A DNA stretch of 63,526 nt, counting the filler, from Globobulimina sp. (taxonomy: Eukaryota), in the NCBI GenBank assembly GCA_003354225.1. It is 21 parts of 21 records of this genome, joined end to end, with 100 filler letters (N's around TTAATTAATTAA, not from the genome) between each part and the next. Parts side by side here need not be neighbours in the genome. Positions count along the whole stretch, not along the records: positions 57,571 to 60,498 come from PIVH01004331.1; 20 more parts are not named here. The stretch is one strand, 5' to 3'. Both the position numbers and the translations under genes were made by a program. Below the pieces are notes generated by a model, which did no database searches, was not told where the DNA came from, and saw only the letters and a list, made by a program, of their open reading frames with translations. This document shows, one piece after another, positions 2,932-60,598 of this stretch; the stretch's first letter is position 1, and each line of letters opens with the position of its first letter.

Positions 2932-3031
2932 NNNNNNNNNNNNNNNNNNNNNNNNNNNNNNNNNNNNNNNNNNNNTTAATTAATTAANNNNNNNNNNNNN
3001 NNNNNNNNNNNNNNNNNNNNNNNNNNNNNNN
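2932..3031. other. Artificial contig linker (44 N + TTAATTAATTAA + 44 N); first of 20 identical linkers
   Basis: The same 100-bp block recurs about every 3030 bp (5963, 8994, 12025, 15056, 18086, 21116, 24146, 27176, 30206, 33236, 36266, 39296, 42326, 45356, 48385, 51414, 54443, 57471, 60499). The 12-mer gives stops in all six frames, and contig lengths fall monotonically from 2931 to 2928. Confidence 0.99.
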
Positions 3032-5356: not shown

Positions 5357-6457
5357 CATAACTATTCTGCCTCGGTGTGATTGGATTTTCTATGCAAACT
5401 CATACAAATTTGACACAGTCTTAATTGAGAATCGTATGCTAATATATACATAATAATAATATCCTGCACTGACAAGCCACGAATTAGTTCACTTACTTGA
5501 AAGGTTTTCACAGTTAACTTTTTTGGCAATGACCTAGTATTTGAAGTTAAAAACCACTCTAGCTAACCCAAAAACTTAGCTAATCATTGTGACGTGCAAT
5601 GTGTTGTATTTATTAAGTTGAATTTTGTCCCACTACTACTTGAAATGAAACGATACGAAACTAAGCCAAAAAAGTTAAATGTAGCATTTAGGAGGATTGG
5701 GATTGATTAAAATAACTGTTCCAATGAAAGTGAGAAAAACATGATCTAAGCGAATATCTTTTATTTCGCGAAATAGAATAAATTTATCATGGATTTAGTA
5801 CATTGAATTCACTCTCTCACAAACAACATAAAAGCAAACATTCAAACATGTTGCATTAAATAATCCAACGCTTGATTAAAACCAACACTATTTGTGTTTG
5901 CAATGGCATCAAAAGCCGCATCATATTCAAATCCCATACTGACCAATGTCTCAATCCATTCANNNNNNNNNNNNNNNNNNNNNNNNNNNNNNNNNNNNNN
6001 NNNNNNTTAATTAATTAANNNNNNNNNNNNNNNNNNNNNNNNNNNNNNNNNNNNNNNNNNNNAATGAGTTCATAGGTGATAGGAGAACTGGATTATAGCG
6101 TTGGTTTGAGATCTGTGTATGACATCTCGAAACAATAAAAAAAAAACGAAGTTCTGAACATTTCCAAAACTTCACAACTGTGTATAATGGATTGTTGGAA
6201 ACAAAAACGCAAACAAAAAAAAATGAATATATTTACTAAACCGTAACTGTTTTGTTTAGGCATATTCACAAAAAATAAAAATACAAAAAACGAATGGCTA
6301 CCACATAATATACATTGTTATAATTTTTTTATTGAGCATTATCCGCATACAATATAAAAATTAATATTATAAATTAACTGACACATTATATTTGAACATG
6401 GCTCCTTTATATAATCAAATAATTATAACAGCAATATACAAGGGTCACATCTGCATA

Positions 6458-10498: not shown

Positions 10499-12024
10499 TC
10501 AATCCGAGTCATCATTATCCGATTCGTCTGTCCATGTACAATCAGTTGGTTCTTCCCTTAAAACATCCAAATAGTCTTTTTCTAAGAAGCCTAAATTTTC
10601 CCTTGCCTCTGCAAATTCGCCTTCTGCCATTCCTTCAGCAACATACCAATGAACAAAGGCTCTTTGTGAGTACATTAAGTCATAACTCTTTAATATTCGC
10701 TCCCTCAAAAATCTAGACATCAATGTATTGTTTCCGATTGCTACGGCACTGCGTTCTGGCACTCCCATACAATCAGTATCCGATATGACTGCTTTGTGTT
10801 CATGCAATCCAATCCCAAACCAAGTTGGACTCCATTCTATTTATATTATATTCCATGACACCATGACACAAAAAAAGATCGTTAAATTATAAACATACCA
10901 ACAAACGTTACTTTTTTACCAACTGTCAATTGTTTCAATGCAATGTTGGCTTTGTCTCTTTCAACATTCCCTCGAAAATACGTAGAAATTGTCATATATT
11001 TATCTCGCTCAGCATCAAAATCCAAACATTCCACCATAAAATTATCCGCATCGAAAGCTTGTTTTGCAATGTCATAAACCGTAAACTTTGGACATCCGAC
11101 ATCATAAACGGAGTAAATTATATTCATCAAATCTTTATATAACAAACCATCGTAAAGATGTTCGCTTATTCTGTCATTAAAACTGCTTCTCACGAAACCA
11201 TCCACCAATATTCTTTTATTTTGCATGAATGTCTGTTTATTTATAATTGGAGCAATTGAAGTTGTCAGAAAATGTAATCTTGGAAAATCACAGCGAATTT
11301 CATTCAAATCGCGATTGAGCTCACTTTCGAATCTAATCCCTGCCGTACACGCACAAACTACTTTGGATATAATGTTATTCAAATCATCATAACTCGGAGT
11401 TGGAACATATAATTTCCCATTGCATATATCATATACTTTTCTGTTGTCGAACACAAACGACCACTCCGTATGATCCAGAAGCCAATGGGTTGCTAATAAA
11501 GCGTTATATGCTTCGACCTGACCCGTTGAATATCGATTGTTGAATGGATAAATATGGAAACCTAATTTTGATTTCTTCCGATAATCCACGGCAATTCTTT
11601 CCAATATTAAAGCGGCTAAACCTGAACCTGTGCCACCTCCGACTGCATTATTCATGACAAAACCTTGTAAATTGTCGCATTTATCCACCAATTTACGCAA
11701 TCTGTCATTGACTTTGCCGATGAGTTCTTTACCAACACTGTAATGGCCGCGAGCAAAGTTGTTTGCTGCATCCTCTTTTCCTGAAACTAAAAATTCTGTA
11801 TCAAAAATCTTTGAATATTTACTGTCAATAACATTATCAATGATATTCGCTTCTAAATCAACCATTAAATTGCGTGGAATGAATTTGCCGGATTCAGTTT
11901 CTTCATAAAAACATAGCAATGATCGGTTCGTGTCGTCTGCTATATTTCCTTCAGTGTCAATGGCATGCTCAGCGCAATATTGTCTCCATATAGTTTGTGC
12001 TAATGGAATGCCAGCGCAGCCAAC
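10499..12024 (-). CDS. TUBA: Divergent alpha-tubulin, 5'-partial; intron 10837-10898
   Basis: GKEDAANNFARGHY, GGGTGSG, FPRLHF, FVEWSPT (after splicing) and YSQRAFVHWYVAEGMAEGEFAEARENL are alpha-tubulin signatures. Confidence 0.93.
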
Positions 12025-12124: not shown

Positions 12125-14696
12125 TACCGAACCGAGTTATGAATCACCTAAGGACGAAGGAGCAGCGCCCGAGGCGGCCGCGAATGACGACGACACCAAA
12201 AAAGTGGAATTCCCTGAATCCCGCAAACCTGATTTCACCGCAGACGCTGAAGACGCGAAACAAACCGAGAACTTCCAGTTCAACGCCGACATCGCGCAAT
12301 TAATGAGCTTAATTATCAACGCCGTCTACTCCAACAAAGAGATTTTCCTTCGCGAATTGATCAGTAATTGCAGTGACGCGTTGGACAAAATCCGTTATGA
12401 GTCCTTAAACGACAAAGAGGCCTTAGGCGCTGAGGCCAATTTGAAGATCGAGATCATCCCCGACCCGGCCTCGCGTACACTGACCATTCGCGATACGGGC
12501 ATTGGAATGACGAAGGAAGACTTGGTGAACAACCTAGGCACCATTGCACGCTCCGGAACCAAGCAGTTTATGGAGGCCATTGCCGCTGGCGCTGACATCT
12601 CCATGATTGGGCAGTTCGGTGTGGGCTTTTATAGTGGGTACTTGGTGTCTGATAAAGTGGTGGTGCGCAGTAAGCACAATGACGATGAACAATATGTATG
12701 GGAGTCCTCTGCCGGCGGCACTTTCACGGTCCGCCCTGACACGCATTCCCCTCATCAGTTGGTGCGAGGAACTGAGATCACGTTGTTGTTAAAAGAAGAC
12801 TGTGCCGGTTATTTGGAGGACAAAAAAGTGAAAGAAATTGTGAAGAAACACTCGCAATTTGTGTCGTTTCCAATTAGTTTATTTACCATTAAAGAAGAGG
12901 AAAAAGTATGTTTTTATATCTCATATCTGCGCTTTTGCGCTTTTTTTTTATGTGATTAATCAGCGAATGTTTTTATGATTTTTATGATTGTTTTTGTAAT
13001 TTCAGGAAATTGATGACAGCGACAGCGATGACGACGATGATGATGAGGAGGATGAGACTGCGGATAAAGATGAGGCTGAAGCCACTGTGGAGGTCGCCAA
13101 GAAGGAGAAGAAAGAGAAGAAGACAGAGACTGTCAAGAAACAAGAATGGGAATTGTTGAACAAACAGAAGCCGATTTGGACCAGAAACCCAAATGAAATC
13201 ACAAAAGAAGAATATTCCGCATTTTATAAGTCGATCAGCAACGATTGGGAGGATTTCTTAGCCATTAAACATTTCAGTGTTGAAGGACAATTAGGTATGC
13301 TTTTCTACACTTATTTTCAGTTTGAAACTGAATTTTTTTTGTTCATTTTCAGATTGAAATGATGTGTTTTGATAAAATTTCAGATTGAAACTATTTTTTT
13401 TGAGTTTCAAACTGGAAACGTTTTTGAGTTTGAGATCATATTTTTTTTTTTGCGTACACAGAATTCAGCGGATTATTATTTGTGCCAAAACGCGCACCAT
13501 TTGATATGTTTGAACCTTCGAAAAAGAAGAATAACATCAAATTATTTGTGCGTCGTGTGTTTATTATGGATGACTGCAAAGAATTAATCCCCGAATGGTT
13601 ATCCTTCATTCGTGGCGTCGTCGATTCTGAAGATTTGCCATTAAATATCTCGCGAGAGTCCTTACAGCAGAACAAAATCTTAAAATTGATTAAAAAGAAT
13701 TTAGTCAAGAAGTCGTTGGAAATGTTCGCGGAATTAGCTGAGAACAAAGATGATTATAAAACGTTTTATGAGCAATTTCATAAAAACATCAAATTAGGCA
13801 TCCATGAGGACAGCAAAAACCGCAAAAAAATCTCCGATTTATTGCGATATTCATCCACCAAAACCTCCGACAAAGAGATGGTATCACTCAAAGAATACGT
13901 GGCTCGCATGAAAGATGACCAAAAAGCCATTTATTACATCACCGGCGAAAGCAAAGCCGGCGTGGAAGCGTCGCCATTTTTGGAGGCCTTAAAAAAGCGC
14001 GATTTGGAGGTATTATTCTTAGTGGACCCCATTGACGAATATGCGGTGCAGCAATTACGCGACTATGACGGCAAGAAATTGCAATGTGTGACCAAGGAAG
14101 GACTGGATTTGGGTTTGACTGAGGATGAGAAGAAGAAGAAAGAGGACGAAAAGGCGTCGTTTGAAGGGCTCTGCAAGAAAATGAAGGAGATTTTGGGCGA
14201 TAAGGTGGAGAAAGTGATCACTTCGGACCGTATGGTGGAGTCTCCGTGCTCTTTGGTAACGGGCGAATATGGCTGGAGTGCCAATATGGAGCGCATTATG
14301 AAAGCACAAGCATTGCGCGACAGTTCGATGACGAGTTATATGGTCAGCAAGAAGACCATGGAAATCAATCCCAAACACGCCATTGTGTCGACGTTGAAGA
14401 CTCGGTTTACCACCGATCCCTCGGATAAGACCATTAAAGATTTGGTGTGGTTGTTGTTTGAAACCTCATTGTTAACCAGCGGGTTTTCGTTGGATGAGCC
14501 GGTTAAATTTGCCGGACGTATTCATAAATTGATCAAATTGGGTTTAGCCATATTTGAAGATGATGGCGATGAGTCTGAGGAGGATGATGATGATTTACCA
14601 GAGGAGGACAAAGAGGATGATGCTGAGGACGATGATGATGATGAAATGCCTACATTGGAAGAAGAGGATATTTCTGCCATGGAAGAAGTCGATTAA
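12125..14696 (+). CDS. HSP90: Cytosolic HSP90, 5'-partial; introns 12906-13005 and 13295-13461
   Basis: [56 protein letters not shown] and C-terminal MEEVD. Both introns restore the frame. Confidence 0.99.
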
Positions 14697-33335: not shown

Positions 33336-34260
33336 ATTATTTGATATCAACAAAATTAAACTGAGGTTACAAAAAACATTGAAAGGAAATGGAAAGTGTC
33401 GACTCAAATGCTGAACACTGCAGAATTTGTTATGAATCTGAGCAGCCAATGCTTGCTCCGTGTTATGTTCTGGTGATTTGAAATTTGTGACAGAAAATGT
33501 TTAAATCAATACAGTGCAATCAATATTTCTCATCCATCATTTACACAATGCAACACTTGCAAGTTTTGTCCACAAATATCCACCGCATTTATCCAGTTTG
33601 TATATATCATGAAAATTGAAAACAATATGGTTAATAATTGTTGCAGATCACCAAAAGCAATTTATAGATTCAAAGTTGCTGTTGATATTTTTAAACTTAT
33701 ATCCTGTGGGCTAACCACTGTATCAATAATTGCTGCATTTTACATTATTCACCAGGAAGTGAGTTAGCTGCATACAAATCATTACAATGGTCCATCGCAG
33801 TTGTTTTTATGATTGGGTGTTTTTGCTATAATTCATGGTTGTGCACACGTACTATGTTCAGAGAAGGATTGTTGTGATTGTAGTGGCGATCATGATTCTG
33901 ATTGTTATGTATGCCCTGTTGGAGATTGTGGTGGCTGTGATCGGGGTGGTGGTGATGCAGACGGCGGCTATGTGGTTGGATTTATTTTAGCTGCGATTGG
34001 GATTGTATTGGTTGTAATTGGTATTGTTTATAGTTTAATAGTTGGTGCAGCCTTATTTTGTAATATGTCAGCAAAGCATGATGCAAAATTAATGACAAGG
34101 TACGTATGTTCGATTGCATATTTATCGAGTTAGCTGATTATTGCATCGTTGTGAAAGATTTACAGAGGTATTCAAAAGAGAAAATATTAACAATGCAATC
34201 AGAGGAACAGAATCCAAGTATGCCAGTAACAGAAGACAACAAACCAAAAGAATGCAAAAC
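33336..34260 (+). pseudogene. RING-CH (MARCH-like) E3 ligase with TM helices, multiply frameshifted
   Basis: CRICYE…LAPCxCSGDLKFVxRKCL…FTQCNTCKF can be read only by crossing 1-nt gaps at ~33464 and ~33490. A Cys/Gly-rich loop and TM segments follow. Confidence 0.75.
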
Positions 34261-36262
34261 AATCACTGTAATGTACGTAATTTTATGTATGCGCGGAAAA
34301 TAACCCGCATCATAGAACAGATTCAAATATGTACACAGAAATTCAATGATAAATGGATGTAAATAAAGCAATAACTGTATATGTATACCGATACCATGAT
34401 GGCACTTTTTATTGATAGTTTTAAACACAAACCGGAGCAAATGGGGGCTAATGGGGTCATTTATTGTATGTACCGCATTGGCATAATGTTCATCATCACA
34501 AATCAATCGCGGATTATGCATTTGATTGGCCTTTAAAATATCCGTAGAGATATTATGCATAATATGTGTACAGGGATATATGTTATCATTCAAAGGGATA
34601 TTCTTAAAACGGAGTCGCGGCAAAGCGTCATATTTAATGTGTTGTATATGGCGATGACAGAACTTCCGCGCAAACAGATTAGCTTTGATGTGGTTATCAT
34701 GGACAAAAGAGGTCGTATTTGTGTCAAGATCAATATGTGTGAGATATGGAATACATTGCTTACGCGATCCGGTTTTACCTATTTTGCGCAAATAACGCAT
34801 AGATTGATATATATCGCGTTGTCCCGAAATGGTTAAGTTAATATTCTGTCGCAGTTTGCGTTTCTTTGCCTGAGTACACAAAGCAGTCAGTATATTTTTC
34901 TGTTGTTTATATAATGCAAATTTGTCATCTTTTGATTGTTTATTAAGAAGAGAGCATTGCAACCAATCACGTTTCAAGAGGCGAAGCGCATCACTTTTAT
35001 CAATGATCTCTCGCGTACACCAAACCTGGCGATATTTATATTTACGCTTTGCAATGCTCCCAATATACTTACCAGCATTTCTATGAATAATGCAATAAAA
35101 AGTATGCGCAAAGTCATCTAATTGAGCACGTGTGGGACTGTGGAGTGATTGGATGCGAATCTGTAATTGTTTTAATTCATAAATGGCATTGATTTGATAC
35201 AAATAGATATTGATTGGGCGCTGAAAACGATAATTAACATTGTCTGCATTGTACATTTTATCGTCGGACACATTTGTATATGATACCTTACATTCACGTA
35301 CTGCAAAAATCGAAAACAAAGCATAATGATCAGAAATGGAGGAACGATTATTTCGAAGATCAACACAATTTATCACATAATTTTCATGCGAAAGCAACAG
35401 TTTATCAGATACCAAATGAAGATCCAACACATTGCCTTTAAAATGAGTTGGTATGCGCTTCATATTGACAATGGATAAATGCTTTTGATTAATGAACTCA
35501 TTCAGCCATTTAAATTCAAGACGATCCAATGTGCGATATCGATGAAAGTCCAAACGAGAGAATAATTCATTATGTATATTAAAATCACCGCTAATTATAA
35601 AGGATTTTATGTTGCGATCAGTTTGAATTAAGGTATGGTTGAACCATTTCTTTTGTTTATAGTGTTTTAATATGTTATCCATAGTATATTTCAGGATTTT
35701 AATGTCAGGCACAATGAGATTACGGCTCGATGAACGATAATAAGAAGCAAATAATACAGTTTGGTCAAATAACGTATTGGGCTGAGGATGTATGGCCACC
35801 CAAACTGAGAAATGAGTATTTTCTTTCTGTAATAATTGCGTATCCACAAAAGTACCAATAATATGTTGTTGCTGCTGATCAGTTATAGTTATAACATCTA
35901 CATACTCCTCCAATGCATTTTTAATATAAATAACGTTTTTAAGAAATAGCCGGTGTACCAGATTTAGTATGAAAATAGCCGGTAATCTCCGGGGGTTTCA
36001 AATATGTTTGATAATGGATGTGAACCTCTTGTAACGAAATAAGTGTCTGTTCCAGTTCATTAACAATATCTTGCAATGCGTCCATTTTAGCACAATTGAA
36101 GTCACCTTTGCCAGTGTGACTAAATAATCCATTAACATTCAAAGATAATACAGTCAATGAAGATTGATAATAATCATCATCAATATGACGCAAAATCATG
36201 TCACTATCGATTATATTCGGATTTATATGGCGAGATCGCCGTTGTTGCATATTATGAGTCAT
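34260..36262 (-). mobile_element. Non-LTR retrotransposon (LINE) ORF2 fragment: APE endonuclease plus pre-RT region
   Basis: LSLNVNGL, ISLQEVH, SYYR, ISGDFNIH, PTH…VLDL and SDH endonuclease motifs, then W-basic linker and GYFPRIHK just before the RT core. One +1 frame break at ~35938. Confidence 0.88.
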
Positions 36263-40177: not shown

Positions 40178-41864
40178 TCAATGATGATTTCTTGTCTTAG
40201 TCTTTGACTGTACTCTTTTCCTTAATTGTTGCGAATATTTAAATCTTTTTTTCAAATCCTTTTTATTCGATTCATCAATTTGTTGAACTGTAAATATTTG
40301 TTTATTACCGTTTTTATCTTGGTATAAAATGATAGATTTTAAATCTTGAAATATTAATTTCGAAGAATCTGCAAAATTTACTTGCGTCGTATCATTTGTT
40401 AAGCAAAATAGCATCGCATTTTTTTCTTTTAGATATTTTCCAACATAAACCTTATCCTCGTTGTTATTTATAAATGTAGATTTTTTTGATAATTTGTCTT
40501 GGATTTTTTCAATTTCTAAGTTATTTGCTTCAGATTTTTTCCATAAATAATCGGTAAAATATTGTAATAGTTTTACTTTTTTAGCAATCTCACTTGGAAA
40601 GTTAGTAAATGAACAATATGTAATATTATTTTTAGCGTCAATATATGTCACACTATCCTTATTACGATGCAATGTCATTTTTGTTGAATCATTAAAATAA
40701 ATTCCGGTAAATCCATTACTTAAAATGTAACCAACTCCGTATTTTTTTGAGTAATCGCAATGTTTCACCACAAAAATAGAATCATTGTTTTTTGTGATTG
40801 CTGTACATGTTTTTTTTGATGGCAACCCATCAAATTCATTATAAATGTTAACGTTTATTTTTGGTTGGTTGCTAAATGCGTTTATATTCATTTTATTTTC
40901 AAATGGTTTCCTATCTAAAATAGACAATGGTAATTGTTTAGGAATACATGTTTTTGTGAAAAAGTCATGTTCTTCAATTTCAGATAGATTTGGTCTTTGC
41001 GACGGATCAATATTTAATATTTTTGATACTAAATCTTTTGCAGAAAATGATATATTTGTTTCGGGATTACTTGGCCATTTATAATTTATTTTTTTTATTC
41101 GCCGATACGTTTCTTGAATATTTCTCGTTTCAAATGGTGGCTTTCCAGTTAATAATGTAAACTGTATACAAATGTTGCGTTTTATTGACAAAATATAAAG
41201 AGAATATTAATAAACATACCATAATCACACCCAATGACCAAATATCCACTTCATACGAATGTCCTTGACCTAATCTTTTTTGATTTAGCACTTCCGGTGC
41301 AATATAATTTGGAGTGCCGCAGATTGTGGTTTTCCGAGCACCGGAATGTTCGACGAGTGTTGCTAGCCCAAAATCACATATTTTAAGAGTTAAGTTTTTA
41401 TCCAATAATAGATTCCCTAATTTTAAGTCTCTGTGAATCACATTTTGTTTATGCAAAAACGTAACACCATTTAGGAGTTGTTTCATAAAATATCGTACTT
41501 CACGTTCGGTTAAGGTGTGTCTGGTACGAATTAATTCCATCAAACTTTGATTAGTACACATTTCTAATATTAAATACACATTATGTTCATCATCAAAATA
41601 TCTTTCAAAGGTTACAATATTATCATGCTTATCGAATGATCGATGTAATCTTATTTCTGAGATTAATTTTTGTTGATGTTCCTTGCGTTTCAATATTGAT
41701 TTATTTATTACCTTACATGCATATAATTTGCGTGAATCTACTGATTCCACACTGTAGACACTTGCAAATCCACCGACACCCAAACGACGTCCAGTTAAAT
41801 ATTTTTTAATATGATTGTGATATTTACAACAAATAATTGCTGGCGGGGCTTGTTTCATTTTCAT
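40178..41864 (-). CDS. PLK1: Polo-like kinase; intron 41162-41219
   Basis: GVGGFASVY, HRDLKLGN, DFG, TICGTPNYIAPE and GHSYEVDIWS, plus two polo boxes (DYSKKYGVGYILSNG…FNDSTKM; TTQVNFADSSKL). Confidence 0.96.
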
Positions 41865-57570: not shown

Positions 57571-58706
57571 GGCAGATCAATATGACAATTATCAAAACAT
57601 TTGGCCCATTGTTTGAGTTTTCTTCTCATATCGAGACATCTTAATTGCAATACTTCCTCATTCGCAGTTCCTGCACAATACAAAATATCCGGACACTGAT
57701 CGTAACTCCACACTATCGGTTCATTACTAAAATGAAAATCACTGTCATTCGGATCAGTTTCATACACGTAATTCCATCGATTATTTACAAAATTATATTT
57801 AATTACATCACCAATCTCAGACACGAGATACATTTTATTTTCATTATGCATATGAGACATATTCCATTTTAAATTATATGGTTGAAAGTGTTCACTTTTA
57901 CACTGAACCGGTTGAATATGTGTCCATTTATTTTCATACAAGTCATAGATTGTAAATTGTAAATCAAAATCATAGATTGTAGAAGAATAAGATACAGCTT
58001 TTGCAACAGCAAACAACGCATCTTTGCCTTCCAAATATGTCATAATCCATTTACTATGTTCCTGTGTGGATATTTGTTGAATGAATGTAAGTTTTGCATC
58101 GATGTCTTGCAATTTAAGCCGATATATATCCATGTCAAGGACTGCAATGATACCCCAATATGGTCCGCAATAAAACCAGTTATCAAACAGTAAATGACTT
58201 GTATTTGGTGAGAATGATTGATATGTGTTGCTATTATCTTTAACGTTTTTGTATATATTATCAGATTCAAACATATATAACATATTGAATATTTTTGTTT
58301 TATTGTATGCCGTTTTGCGCGTCAGAATGGCATCATATTTTGTGTTGGGTTTAATATGGTTGATGTTTAATAATTGTTTGAGTTGGCTTGAATTGATCGA
58401 ATCGGATAGGTTTGGAATATGACATGAAATATCAAAATATTGCTGACTCGCACCGGAGTTATATGAATGTAATTCAATTACATTTTTGTTGAATTGGGGA
58501 TTGTTTGGCGAGGTTACATTCAATACATGAAATGCAGCGTAATTGTTAATGAATATCAACTTTGAAATAAAGTAAAATTGATAGCATATTTGACAAATGT
58601 CGTTTGGTGGTGATGATGTTTCGTGTATTTCACGTAGAAAACCGTGTGTTAATAACTCACATTTATTTATTAATTTTGATTCAGACTTACTTTCTTTGTT
58701 TCCCAT
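57571..58706 (-). CDS. Degenerate Kelch/beta-propeller protein with MGNKES myristoylation-like start; 3'-partial
   Basis: IYDLYENKW and KYNFVNNRW blade ends, plus the N-terminal LLTHGFLR…PPNDICQICYQFY module. Confidence 0.65.
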
Positions 58707-58884
58707 GTAAGTTTATGTATATAACTGTTTTTGAGTCGAACTATCTTTGAGCATGCTTTGTAAAGCATCATGAAGAATCGTAGTAAATCTACGGTCACCA
58801 CATATACCGTCAGTGACACTAATCAGACACATAAAACTACAGTTACTACACCAATGTTCAGACCTCCAGTCATCTTTCAACACC

Positions 58885-60229
58885 ATGCAATCTATGCGAA
58901 AATTTGGTCTATGGAGTGCATTCACTTCCACAATTGAATGGGTATCTCCTTTTGTTGCGGGTACAGTAAAAACAGCGTGGAATGTAGCGAAATCTGTTGG
59001 TGATTAAGTATTTGAAAATGTATCAACTGACGAACCACCAACTCACTCTACGACAGCAACTAAAGAAACAGAATCAACAACAAATACTGAGGATCAGTAT
59101 CCATTACCAACTTTCAATGGGTTTTCAACCAAACATATTAATATTGCTATAATTGGTGACTCTGGAAATGGTAAAAGTTCGTTTGTCAATTCATATTTGG
59201 ATATGGAACAAAATGATAACAACAGAGCAAAAACAGGATTCGTAGAAACGACAGGTTAAAAAACAAAGTGATTCAGACAATCTCCGTTTTATATTATAAT
59301 TAATTTTATTTGTATTGCACCTATGCACAGCTATTGAACCTAATGATGTGAAATATTTTGAATGGTTTCCAGACGCTTCTCCAACAAACAATGTAGTGCG
59401 ATTTTGGGATTTGCCGGGATGTGGTACAAACCAATATAAATTTGCTGGGTATACACAAAAAATGGGATTAAGACATTTTGATATGTGCATTATTATCACA
59501 TCTCAGAGATTCACAGAACATGATGACAAGTTAGCAGTGCAGCTACATGCATTCGACGTTCCTATTTATTTGATTCGATCTAAGTTTGATACTGATTTGA
59601 CCAATCATTGTCATGATAATAATATTGAATATGGAACATTAACTGAAGAAGAACAAGGACAAATTATTAAAGATATGCGGTCGACATTAAAGAATGATAT
59701 TCATCGGGCATTGCCGAAATCAGTTTCGATGATCAAAGATAAATTTTATATTTTATCATCTCGTACAAAAGGATTAACAATTGAGGATTGGCTAAGATTA
59801 CAAAAAAATATAACTATTGAATTAATGAATCATCGTAAAGTAGACAAAGCATTTAAAGAACGAGTGTTAGATTTTTGGAGTGATGTATCAGGAAAATTGA
59901 AAGCCGGAGGACTTGCATTCAAAGAGGCAATGAATAGAATGAGAGAAAAAGAGTCAAAAAATGATATTAATGATTTGGATAAAAGAATAGAGTCAGAAAA
60001 GGTGGTTTGTGATGAAGCCAATTCAGCAGCAGATGTTGTAGAATTTTTAAAGAAGTTAAGTTTGGAAAAATATTCCGCTGCATTTGCTGAAGCTGCTATT
60101 TATGATATGGATGATTTGAATGCATTGGAACAAGAAGATTTGGAAGATATGGGTATGAAGTTAGCGGATAGAAAGAAAATATTGAAAGGAAAAAGCAAAA
60201 GCAAATTAAAGTCAGATTTTTATAAATAA
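58885..60229 (+). CDS. IRG/p47 (IIGP-family) GTPase with C-terminal SAM domain; intron 59255-59330; in-frame TAA at 59005-59007
   Basis: G1 IAIIGDSGNGKSSFVN, G2 AKTGFVETT, G3 FWDLPGCG, SQRFTEHD, G4 IRSKFDTDL. SAM: VVEFLKKLSLEKYSAAF…LEDMGMKLADRKKIL. Confidence 0.88.
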
Positions 60230-60598
60230 TAATGACATACGTTTATTGTAATCTATACTGGTATTACTATATTACTATTATTACTAACTTACTAACGATT
60301 TATATGTCATTTTTGTTTCCAAATAGGAGATACGTTGTTGCCTCAGTCATTTCCATCATTTCTGAACCAACCACTGTGACTAAGATTAAAACCAGCTTAA
60401 ATGAATGATTTTGTCCTTGACTTGCATTAAAAGCTCCGACGACAAATAAATAAGGGAAGAAACGTTGCTGATCTCACTTTTAAATCAATCATACACAANN
60501 NNNNNNNNNNNNNNNNNNNNNNNNNNNNNNNNNNNNNNNNNNTTAATTAATTAANNNNNNNNNNNNNNNNNNNNNNNNNNNNNNNNNNNNNNNNNNNN

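Follow-up and report, generated by a model that had tools for sequence, protein, structure and literature searches.

An IRG-type G domain joined to a SAM domain in a two-exon gene, interrupted by an in-frame stop, from a Globobulimina assembly

The DNA analysed here, a stretch of 63,526 nucleotides assigned to Globobulimina sp. (assembly GCA_003354225.1) and hereafter called the window, almost certainly carries at positions 58885-60229 of the plus strand a two-exon nuclear gene of an AT-rich protist, whose product, of 422 codon positions, would combine a G domain of the type found in immunity-related GTPases (IRGs) with a C-terminal SAM domain. A coordinate-based script that joined the two exons counted 423 codons with stops solely at codons 41 and 423, the former being a premature TAA that interrupts this copy. 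Research on IRG proteins has dealt almost exclusively with their part in vertebrates, as resistance factors induced by interferon, and mice use IRG-type GTPases to break open parasite vacuoles. All coordinates refer to the whole window; the gene lies wholly inside the piece 57571-60498, and its translations were handled apart, exon 1 as P0001 (123 residues, with an X at the TAA) and exon 2 as P0002 (298 residues).

Both translations matched the Pfam family IIGP (PF05049), whose curated cut-off is 24 bits: exon 1 at 3.3e-9 (36.8 bits) over residues 80-123 of P0001 and profile positions 31-74, and exon 2 at 1.7e-18 (67.3 bits) over residues 17-127 of P0002 and profile positions 83-187, a match that stands far beyond chance level. 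Generic models stayed below their cut-offs on exon 1 (MMR_HSR1 0.084, 13.4 bits; AIG1 0.088, 12.5 bits) and gave nothing on exon 2, and Pfam Dynamin_N reached 0.054 on exon 1 only. An earlier description of this locus, made from the DNA letters and referred to here as the sequence-only reading, had proposed an IRG/p47 GTPase and had staked this on IIGP, rather than a generic MMR_HSR1 or AIG1 GTPase, being the best profile, which is what we found. Among other collections, NCBIfam held no model close to cut-off for either translation, the top Protein Atlas score for exon 2 (0.82, to bacterial MMR_HSR1 clusters) was under the level that counts, and PADLOC returned weak P-loop-level matches only. 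In sequence searches of the PDB all 13 of the 13 G-domain matches to exon 2 were IRGs (Irga6, Irgb6/TGTP2, Irgb10, Iigp1c; 5e-11 to 2e-8), the three remaining matches being SAM domains, and the top nine matches to exon 1 were also IRGs.

Fold comparison points in the same direction. The AlphaFold2 model of P0002, built from 56 aligned sequences and with a mean predicted local distance difference test score (pLDDT) of 87.8, contains the remainder of the G domain, a helix at residues 146-167, another at 172-221, a low-confidence hinge at 221-229 and the SAM domain at 230-297. When this model was submitted to Foldseek, all rows listed to rank 37 were IRGs (1.2e-4 to 1.2e-2), overlapping it by about 140-170 columns at about 4 A, and SAM domains came next. 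With the full-length relative P0004 as query the listed rows to rank 33 were all IRGs and the first mitofusin appeared at rank 35 (1.6e-8). The dynamin-type insertions and helical-bundle stalk expected of a dynamin-superfamily tether were not found, mitofusins ranking below every IRG.

The G-motifs named in the sequence-only reading (GDSGNGKS, TGFVETT, WDLPG, RF..D..LA and RSKFDTDL) were all recovered in their places, and G1 GxxxxGKS, the switch I Thr, G3 DxxG and G4 xKxD are present in IRG spacing. The P-loop GDSGNGKS, of GKS type, occupies 59155..59178 (+) and switch I, TGFVETT, 59233..59253 (+); across the intron follow G3, DLPG within WDLPG (59408..59419, +), with Cys as the next residue at the place of Ras Gln61, and G4, SKFD within RSKFDTDL (59579..59590, +), the Irga6 counterpart of which is TKVD. 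The motif RFTEHDDKLA is also present in the G-domain region. Two stretches align to Irga6 without gaps, residues 82-123 of P0001 to 67-108 and residues 13-94 of P0002 to 113-194. The portion of Pawlowski et al. 2011 (PMC3042988) used here names Glu77, Thr102, Gly103, Glu106, Thr108, Ser132, Arg159, Lys161, Asp164, Asn191 and Lys196 as catalytic-interface residues of Irga6, and describes Glu106 as essential for the activation of hydrolysis. Lys196 falls beyond the aligned stretch and was not scored; of the ten alignable positions seven are identical (Thr102, Gly103, Glu106 and Thr108, all four in switch I, and Arg159, Asp164 and Asn191), two are conservative (Glu77 to Asp, Ser132 to Thr) and one is different (Lys161 to Thr).

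Thus, the window protein shares with Irga6 and other GKS-type IRGs (Irgb6, Irgb10, Iigp1c/GM4951) the G-domain family, by profile, sequence and fold alike, and with Irga6 the GKS P-loop, the equal spacing of motifs and the seven interface residues. It departs from Irga6 in leaving profile positions 1-30 and 188-375 unmatched, in ending with a SAM domain, in lacking the MG myristoylation start, the place of which is taken by an amphipathic or hydrophobic N-terminal segment plus a long linker, and in reading SKFD for TKVD at G4 and Cys, not Ile, after DxxG; unlike that of the mouse IRGs, its host is a protist without interferon. The canonical p47 architecture, in which the G domain has a helical region before it and a helical domain after it, was not found, and about 85 residues forming two helices in the model lead from the G domain to the SAM domain. 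Since the helical domains flanking the p47 G domain are absent, the product is to be called an IRG-type G-domain protein rather than a canonical IRG; of the IRG/p47 designation first given to it, the IRG-type G domain stands and the p47 part does not.

SAM domain, N-terminal segment and relatives

The C-terminal SAM domain, likewise anticipated by the sequence-only reading, spans 60020..60223 (+; exon-2 residues 230-297) and was recognized over residues 230-285 of P0002 by Pfam SAM_1 (4.7e-11, 43.3 bits, cut-off 23) and SAM_2 (7.1e-9, 36.1 bits, cut-off 20.5). It is modelled as a bundle of five helices at pLDDT 85-95, with root mean square deviations (rmsd) of 1.1 to 1.3 A to known SAM domains over 57-59 columns; its Foldseek neighbours include ANKS6 (rmsd 1.2 A over 59 columns, 36% identity) and ANKS4B (1.1 A over 57 columns), and by sequence it matches Caskin-2 at 4.1e-5. 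The five-helix fold is that of the SAM domains of Caskin-1/2, ANKS3/ANKS6, ANKS4B, BICC1, Eph receptors and SARM1; those, however, sit with ankyrin, kinase or TIR modules, whereas the one described here sits with a GTPase. The G domain and the SAM domain are connected by a predicted long helix of 50 residues (59846..59995, +; exon-2 residues 172-221).

At the other end of the protein, the first 40 codons (58885..59004, +) encode a weakly hydrophobic, amphipathic segment, with a Kyte-Doolittle maximum of 0.93 over 19 residues and an amphipathic stretch at residues 27-44 of helical moment 0.48, so that the earlier wording of an amphipathic-looking N-terminus is a fair one. The N-termini of relatives are clearly hydrophobic at the same position (2.38 in P0031, 1.86 in P0045, 1.55 in P0034 and 1.40 in P0004), and between them and G1 come a linker and then a YPxP-like word; this N-terminal layout is common to the window protein, in which the linker is Thr/Ser-rich, and its relatives. 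The segment is likely, from these sequence features, to be a membrane-binding element.

Relatives were sought with P0002 in a HMMER scan of 1.84 billion representatives, which gave 1032 matches at 1e-3, 171 at 1e-10 and one at 1e-30; the architecture and tree work rests on the best 150 of the 1032. A word-based search had retained a single match out of 925 candidates, namely P0003 (333 residues, 49% identical, IIGP plus SAM). In the first 75 HMMER matches, scanned singly at a Pfam threshold of 1e-5, IIGP was found in 74, the exception (P0069) being a multi-SAM protein; two of the 74 combined IIGP with SAM (P0003 and P0004) and one combined it with RING (P0050), and many were tandem proteins with two or three G domains. 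The next 75 contained IIGP in 75 of 75; of 46 families in all, the 25 most frequent, down to those with 2 members each, did not include SAM. A custom iterated SAM profile run on the best 150 of the 1032 detected SAM solely in P0003, P0004 and P0069, hence in none of the 75 further proteins; the combination is therefore rare, at 2 of the 149 IIGP-positive proteins among these best 150, and the finding that would have spoken against the sequence-only reading, an IIGP-plus-SAM architecture already common in protists, was not made. Proteins of this kind elsewhere would presumably have ranked among the best 150, since a SAM domain adds 20-40 bits and match 150 still scored 59 bits. Scans of metagenomes gave 55 pattern matches with the clade alignment, none of them confirmed, and no match with a degenerate P-loop pattern.

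A quick IQ-TREE run on 146 of the 150 G segments (four shorter than 120 residues being excluded) placed the window protein with P0003, P0004, P0007, P0010 and P0025 in a group of 6 rows with a Shimodaira-Hasegawa-like approximate likelihood ratio (SH-aLRT) support of 99, apart from a vertebrate-containing group (42 rows, 95), a dinoflagellate-containing group (90 rows, 97) and a fungus-containing group (7 rows, 97). The five nearest relatives come from environmental ENA, JGI/IMG and Logan contigs of 1.7-2.5 kb; judged by sequence, the window protein is a member of a small, distinct IRG-type clade, so far only from environmental contigs. P0003 (49-50% identical) and P0004 (494 residues, 38%) have the same IIGP-plus-SAM architecture; P0004 is encoded in one open frame, begins with an MG-hydrophobic segment and has an extra low-confidence tail of ~110 residues, and P0003 is a fragment with a mis-called N-terminus. 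Sub-threshold SAM signals were seen in P0010 (SAM_1, 0.015) and in P0025 and P0155 (SAM_Ste50p, 0.014), and hhalign of these three C-termini against the three clear SAM domains confirmed no SAM (E 0.018, probability 2.6%). A SAM domain is thus established in 3 of the 6 clade members, the window protein included.

The named members of the matched clusters are turtles, a monitor lizard and a fish (in tandem forms) and, outside animals, the fungus Rhodonia placenta ('IRG-type G domain-containing protein') and the dinoflagellates Symbiodinium ('Iigp1'), Durusdinium and Biecheleria. The dinoflagellate proteins (e.g. 'Iigp1 [Symbiodinium sp. CCMP2592]', CAE7839817.1) and the Rhodonia placenta entry resemble ours in carrying a non-vertebrate IRG-type G domain, and the dinoflagellate layout likewise runs from hydrophobic N-terminus through linker and YPxP-like word to G1; they differ in falling in the other tree groups of 90 and 7 rows and in having no SAM domain that we could find. 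IRGs were reportedly extended to cephalochordates by Li et al. 2009. In the part of Bekpen et al. 2005 (PMC1297648) used here IRGs are described from bony fish upward and as 'missing in the invertebrates', with an obscure origin and doubtful relatives in C. elegans and cyanobacteria. Our literature search, which covered sources other than subscription journals, found no account of protist IRG-type GTPases or of the IIGP-plus-SAM architecture. IRG-type domains outside vertebrates are already labelled in public dinoflagellate and fungal records. What is new is the distinct small clade itself, its SAM domain where IRGs have their helical domain, and its presence in a rhizarian-like genome.

Gene structure and the premature TAA

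Exon 1 (58885..59254, +, 370 nt) carries the N-terminal segment, a low-complexity linker, G1 and switch I; exon 2 (59331..60229, +, 899 nt including the stop) carries G3 to G5, two helices, the hinge and the SAM domain, and closes with a TAA at 60227..60229 that is followed by TAA TGA. Between them lies a spliceosomal intron of 76 nt (59255..59330, +; GT..AG, phase 1), with a GC content of 0.26 against 0.36 and 0.32 in exons 1 and 2. The boundaries are backed from outside the window, since in one contig from a related organism (run X3, record 12) position 59255 is followed directly by 59332, so that exactly 76 nt are left out, in agreement with the intron and nuclear origin claimed by the sequence-only reading; the intron is also missing from a 594-nt contig of run X2 (record 7), which covers 58735 to 59229 and, after six other letters, continues at 59327. 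That X2 and X3 are RNA is a guess, and the joined forms could be spliced RNA or intron-less DNA copies, either of which marks the exon boundaries. The frame opens with the ATG at 58885; another ATG follows in the same frame at 58894 and may be the real start. The X2 contig lacks 4 nt at the first of the two.

The premature in-frame TAA (59005..59007, +) is codon 41 and falls in the linker that leads from the N-terminal segment to the G domain. Whether it is present in reads had been left as a question by the sequence-only reading. Run X1 (organism A) contains all sampled words of 58700-60400 and is possibly the sample behind the window, and runs X2 and X3 (organisms B and C, from another study) contain 8% and 5% of them; the runs listed included no RNA of the source organism. 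The X1 contigs match the window with 0 differing letters, and the one covering 58700-59324 includes the TAA, which is therefore not an artefact of the window assembly alone. On the other hand, the X2 contig lacks 12 nt at 59006 and has the change G59002A, from which it can be deduced that it would read AAT TAT where the window has GAT TAA plus four codons, with an open frame at this place. Within the coding region it has indels of 12 nt, 15 nt (in switch I) and 15 nt (at 59370), all multiples of three; those upstream of or at the first ATG, of 10 and 4 nt, are not. The 15-nt indel in switch I removes the five codons K-T-G-F-V (59230-59244), the Glu counterpart being kept. A ciliate-type code in which TAA specifies a residue was rejected, as the gene itself ends in TAA and so do 10 of the 16 open reading frames (ORFs) of >=250 codons in the window. 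We conclude from these sequence comparisons that the TAA is a lineage-specific lesion at the 12-nt indel.

The 381 codons after the TAA are open and every G motif in them is intact. We consider it more likely than not that the present copy is non-functional, as a null allele or, with the rest of the frame intact, a very young pseudogene of an otherwise functional family. The same intact 381 codons can be claimed for the opposite case, a long shot in our judgement, in which the gene is whole because the TAA is spliced out, for instance as part of a 57-nt GT..AG stretch that keeps the frame (59000-59056), or is bypassed by read-through, and a full-length protein is made. By script, 25 in-frame GT..AG pairs span the TAA and leave an open frame, and the 57-nt candidate contains a CTGAC branch-like word. 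Yet the X2 contig, from which the 76-nt intron is missing, keeps 59000-59056 less the 12 nt; the GC content of the candidate (0.39) is exon-like and unlike that of the true intron, and its donor GTGATT and its acceptor do not resemble those of the verified introns GTTAAA..CACAG and GTATGT..ACAG, so that a 57-nt intron across the TAA is left unsupported. Also against an intact gene, TAA is the commonest terminator of long ORFs in the window as well as the end of the GTPase gene.

The X1 contigs break at 59295-59324 and 59938-59967, with alternative loose ends, which suggests a second, diverged copy or allele sharing parts of the gene; a tblastn search confined to the window found no second copy.

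Proposed mechanism and competing explanations

The domains described above allow a mechanism to be proposed for an intact member of the family. The N-terminus would keep the protein on a membrane; GTP binding would then lead to a head-to-head G-domain dimer with trans-activated hydrolysis, as in Irga6; and the SAM domain would supply a second, nucleotide-independent contact, with itself or with another SAM protein. Such two-valent molecules could form a lattice on a target membrane, be it that of a phagosome, a prey vacuole or a symbiont vacuole. As a whole, with its mechanism and cellular target, we take this to be the best explanation and give it an even chance of holding. Its parts differ in strength. 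Irga6-like GTP-dependent dimerisation, proposed because the counterparts of Thr102, Gly103, Glu106, Thr108, Arg159, Asp164 and Asn191 are conserved, appears reasonably likely from the alignment; self-association through the SAM domain is a putative step that could equally well fall either way; and a putative role in defence or directed at vacuoles is put forward tentatively, as somewhat unlikely. A bolder and improbable extension would be a rhizarian IRG-like system for membrane attack or vacuole policing, of interferon-independent origin, in which SAM polymerisation replaces the helical domain and which evolves by birth and death while governing the fate of prey, kleptoplasts or endosymbionts; if true, the interrupted copy would be a snapshot of that birth-and-death evolution.

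A number of observations weigh against this account. The IIGP match is confined to profile positions 31-187 of 375 and the p47 N- and C-terminal helical domains are absent, so that what holds for Irga6 may not apply to the mechanism here. That the N-terminus of the window protein binds membranes is uncertain, as it is weakly hydrophobic by the value given above; the 50-residue helix could not be read as a coiled coil, with at most 7 of 14 a/d positions hydrophobic and no clear heptad pattern; and SAM domains can also be monomeric or heterotypic. The comparison with X2 and X3 rests on single contigs of depth 2.3 to 4, judged from difference tables and not from letters. Because it lacks K-T-G-F-V of switch I, X2 may be a divergent paralogue. 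Among the listed differences, to which eight further ones not included in the counts would have to be added, 18 of 26 changed codons in X2 are non-synonymous (including all 8 of those within codons 1-40, most of which are conservative), as are 6 of 12 in X3; these differences fit fast adaptive protein evolution as well as relaxed constraint, the numbers being too small to separate the two. Finally, the taxon of the host, treated below, is drawn from one marker on another piece, and transcriptomes of the kind that it matched can carry contaminants.

Two other functions deserve to be weighed against the IRG-like assembly on a target membrane. The protein could be a housekeeping GTPase of membrane dynamics, that is, a tether, a helper of fusion or fission or a shaper of organelles in the manner of atlastin or mitofusin, serving the large endomembrane and pseudopodial system of the cell with an N-terminal anchor, a trans G-domain dimer and a SAM scaffold. 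A membrane anchor, a G domain and a long helix are indeed the layout of membrane-tethering GTPases, and mitofusin and atlastin share with our protein the anchor, the dimerising G domain and the helical stalk; for P0004 the structural neighbours that come once the IRGs end, from rank 35 onwards, are mitofusins. Moreover, nothing in the window ties the gene to other defence genes, and the PADLOC output amounts to P-loop-level noise. Nonetheless, mitofusin and atlastin are far more distant (10-15% identity) and the anchor of the window protein is N-terminal; by sequence IRGs are much nearer, and no mitofusin appeared in the PDB sequence searches. A housekeeping gene would also be expected to be conserved and widespread, whereas this clade is tiny, with 5 relatives among the 1.84 billion representatives and only 1 below 1e-30, and neither the fast evolution at the protein level nor the interruption of this copy is what such a gene should show. 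We regard the housekeeping function as unlikely. Less probable still, and in our opinion very unlikely, is a nucleotide-controlled switch whose SAM domain brings in a signalling protein that has a SAM domain of its own, for example a kinase or scaffold, so that the protein would act in signalling and not in membrane remodelling. The nearest SAM domains by sequence and fold do include heterotypic pairs (ANKS6 with ANKS3, ANKS4B, SHIP2 with EphA2); no SAM partner was identified, however, and the conserved Irga6-type interface favours hydrolysis activated by a homodimer, which is a property of assembly GTPases and not of classical switches.

The presence in a rhizarian-like protist of a G domain that is clearly IRG-type and keeps the catalytic dimer interface would move the question of the origin of IRGs well outside animals. 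With its G domain, stalk and SAM, the protein would also be a minimal natural variant in which to study the requirements of the G-domain dimer for its work on membranes. Foraminifera-like cells feed on engulfed prey and in many cases harbour symbionts or plastids, and in them it is a candidate for vacuole control. The value of these points is tempered by the IRG-type domains already labelled in dinoflagellates and a fungus, and by the present copy being probably dead.

Host marker and other genes of the window

The window is made up of 21 pieces, each of 2928-2931 nt, with 20 identical artificial spacers of 100 nt (44 N, TTAATTAATTAA, 44 N) between them, at 2932-3031, 5963-6062 and so on to 60499-60598; genes are cut at piece ends, and adjacency across spacers is not to be assumed. 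The protist host named by the sequence-only reading agrees with one marker, an HSP90-family gene at 12144-14693 (+) with >=3 exons, which is 84-91% identical to an 820-residue EukProt foraminiferal protein, a length that suggests the paralogue of the endoplasmic reticulum (GRP94-type). Its ORF is 91-92% identical to marine metatranscriptome and JGI proteins, and the 90% clusters of two of the matches include EukProt proteins of Bolivina argentea, Nonionella stella and Bulimina marginata, all three of them foraminifera. By this sequence marker, the host is a probable foraminifer-like rhizarian.

In the piece that holds the GTPase gene, a divergent neighbour at 57573-58706 (-), 178 nt upstream of the gene, starts with MGNKES, a possible N-myristoylation site, and has its C-terminus cut by the spacer; it gave no Pfam match at 1e-3, and in the Atlas its leads to Kelch-repeat clusters reached only 0.85-0.88. 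Downstream of the gene, the same piece includes the tail part of an ORF for a membrane protein, in convergent orientation. Scans for Rfam families and tRNAs across the window gave 0 matches. Other pieces encode, besides the HSP90-family protein, a tubulin, polo-like and other kinases, an annexin, a VWA protein and a non-LTR (long terminal repeat) retrotransposon. The tubulin-family ORF at 10885-11919 (-) scored moderately (Tubulin 8.7e-44, Tubulin_C 1.7e-12) and may be a divergent tubulin; the ORF at 34141-35913 (-), of 591 residues, is an endonuclease-reverse transcriptase (Exo_endo_phos_2, 4.9e-9) from a copy of the retrotransposon. The polo-like kinase gene at 40181-41864 (-), with Pkinase and two POLO boxes, has a single 60-nt GTATGT..ACAG intron, which is useful as a splice-signal reference for this genome, in which introns are short.

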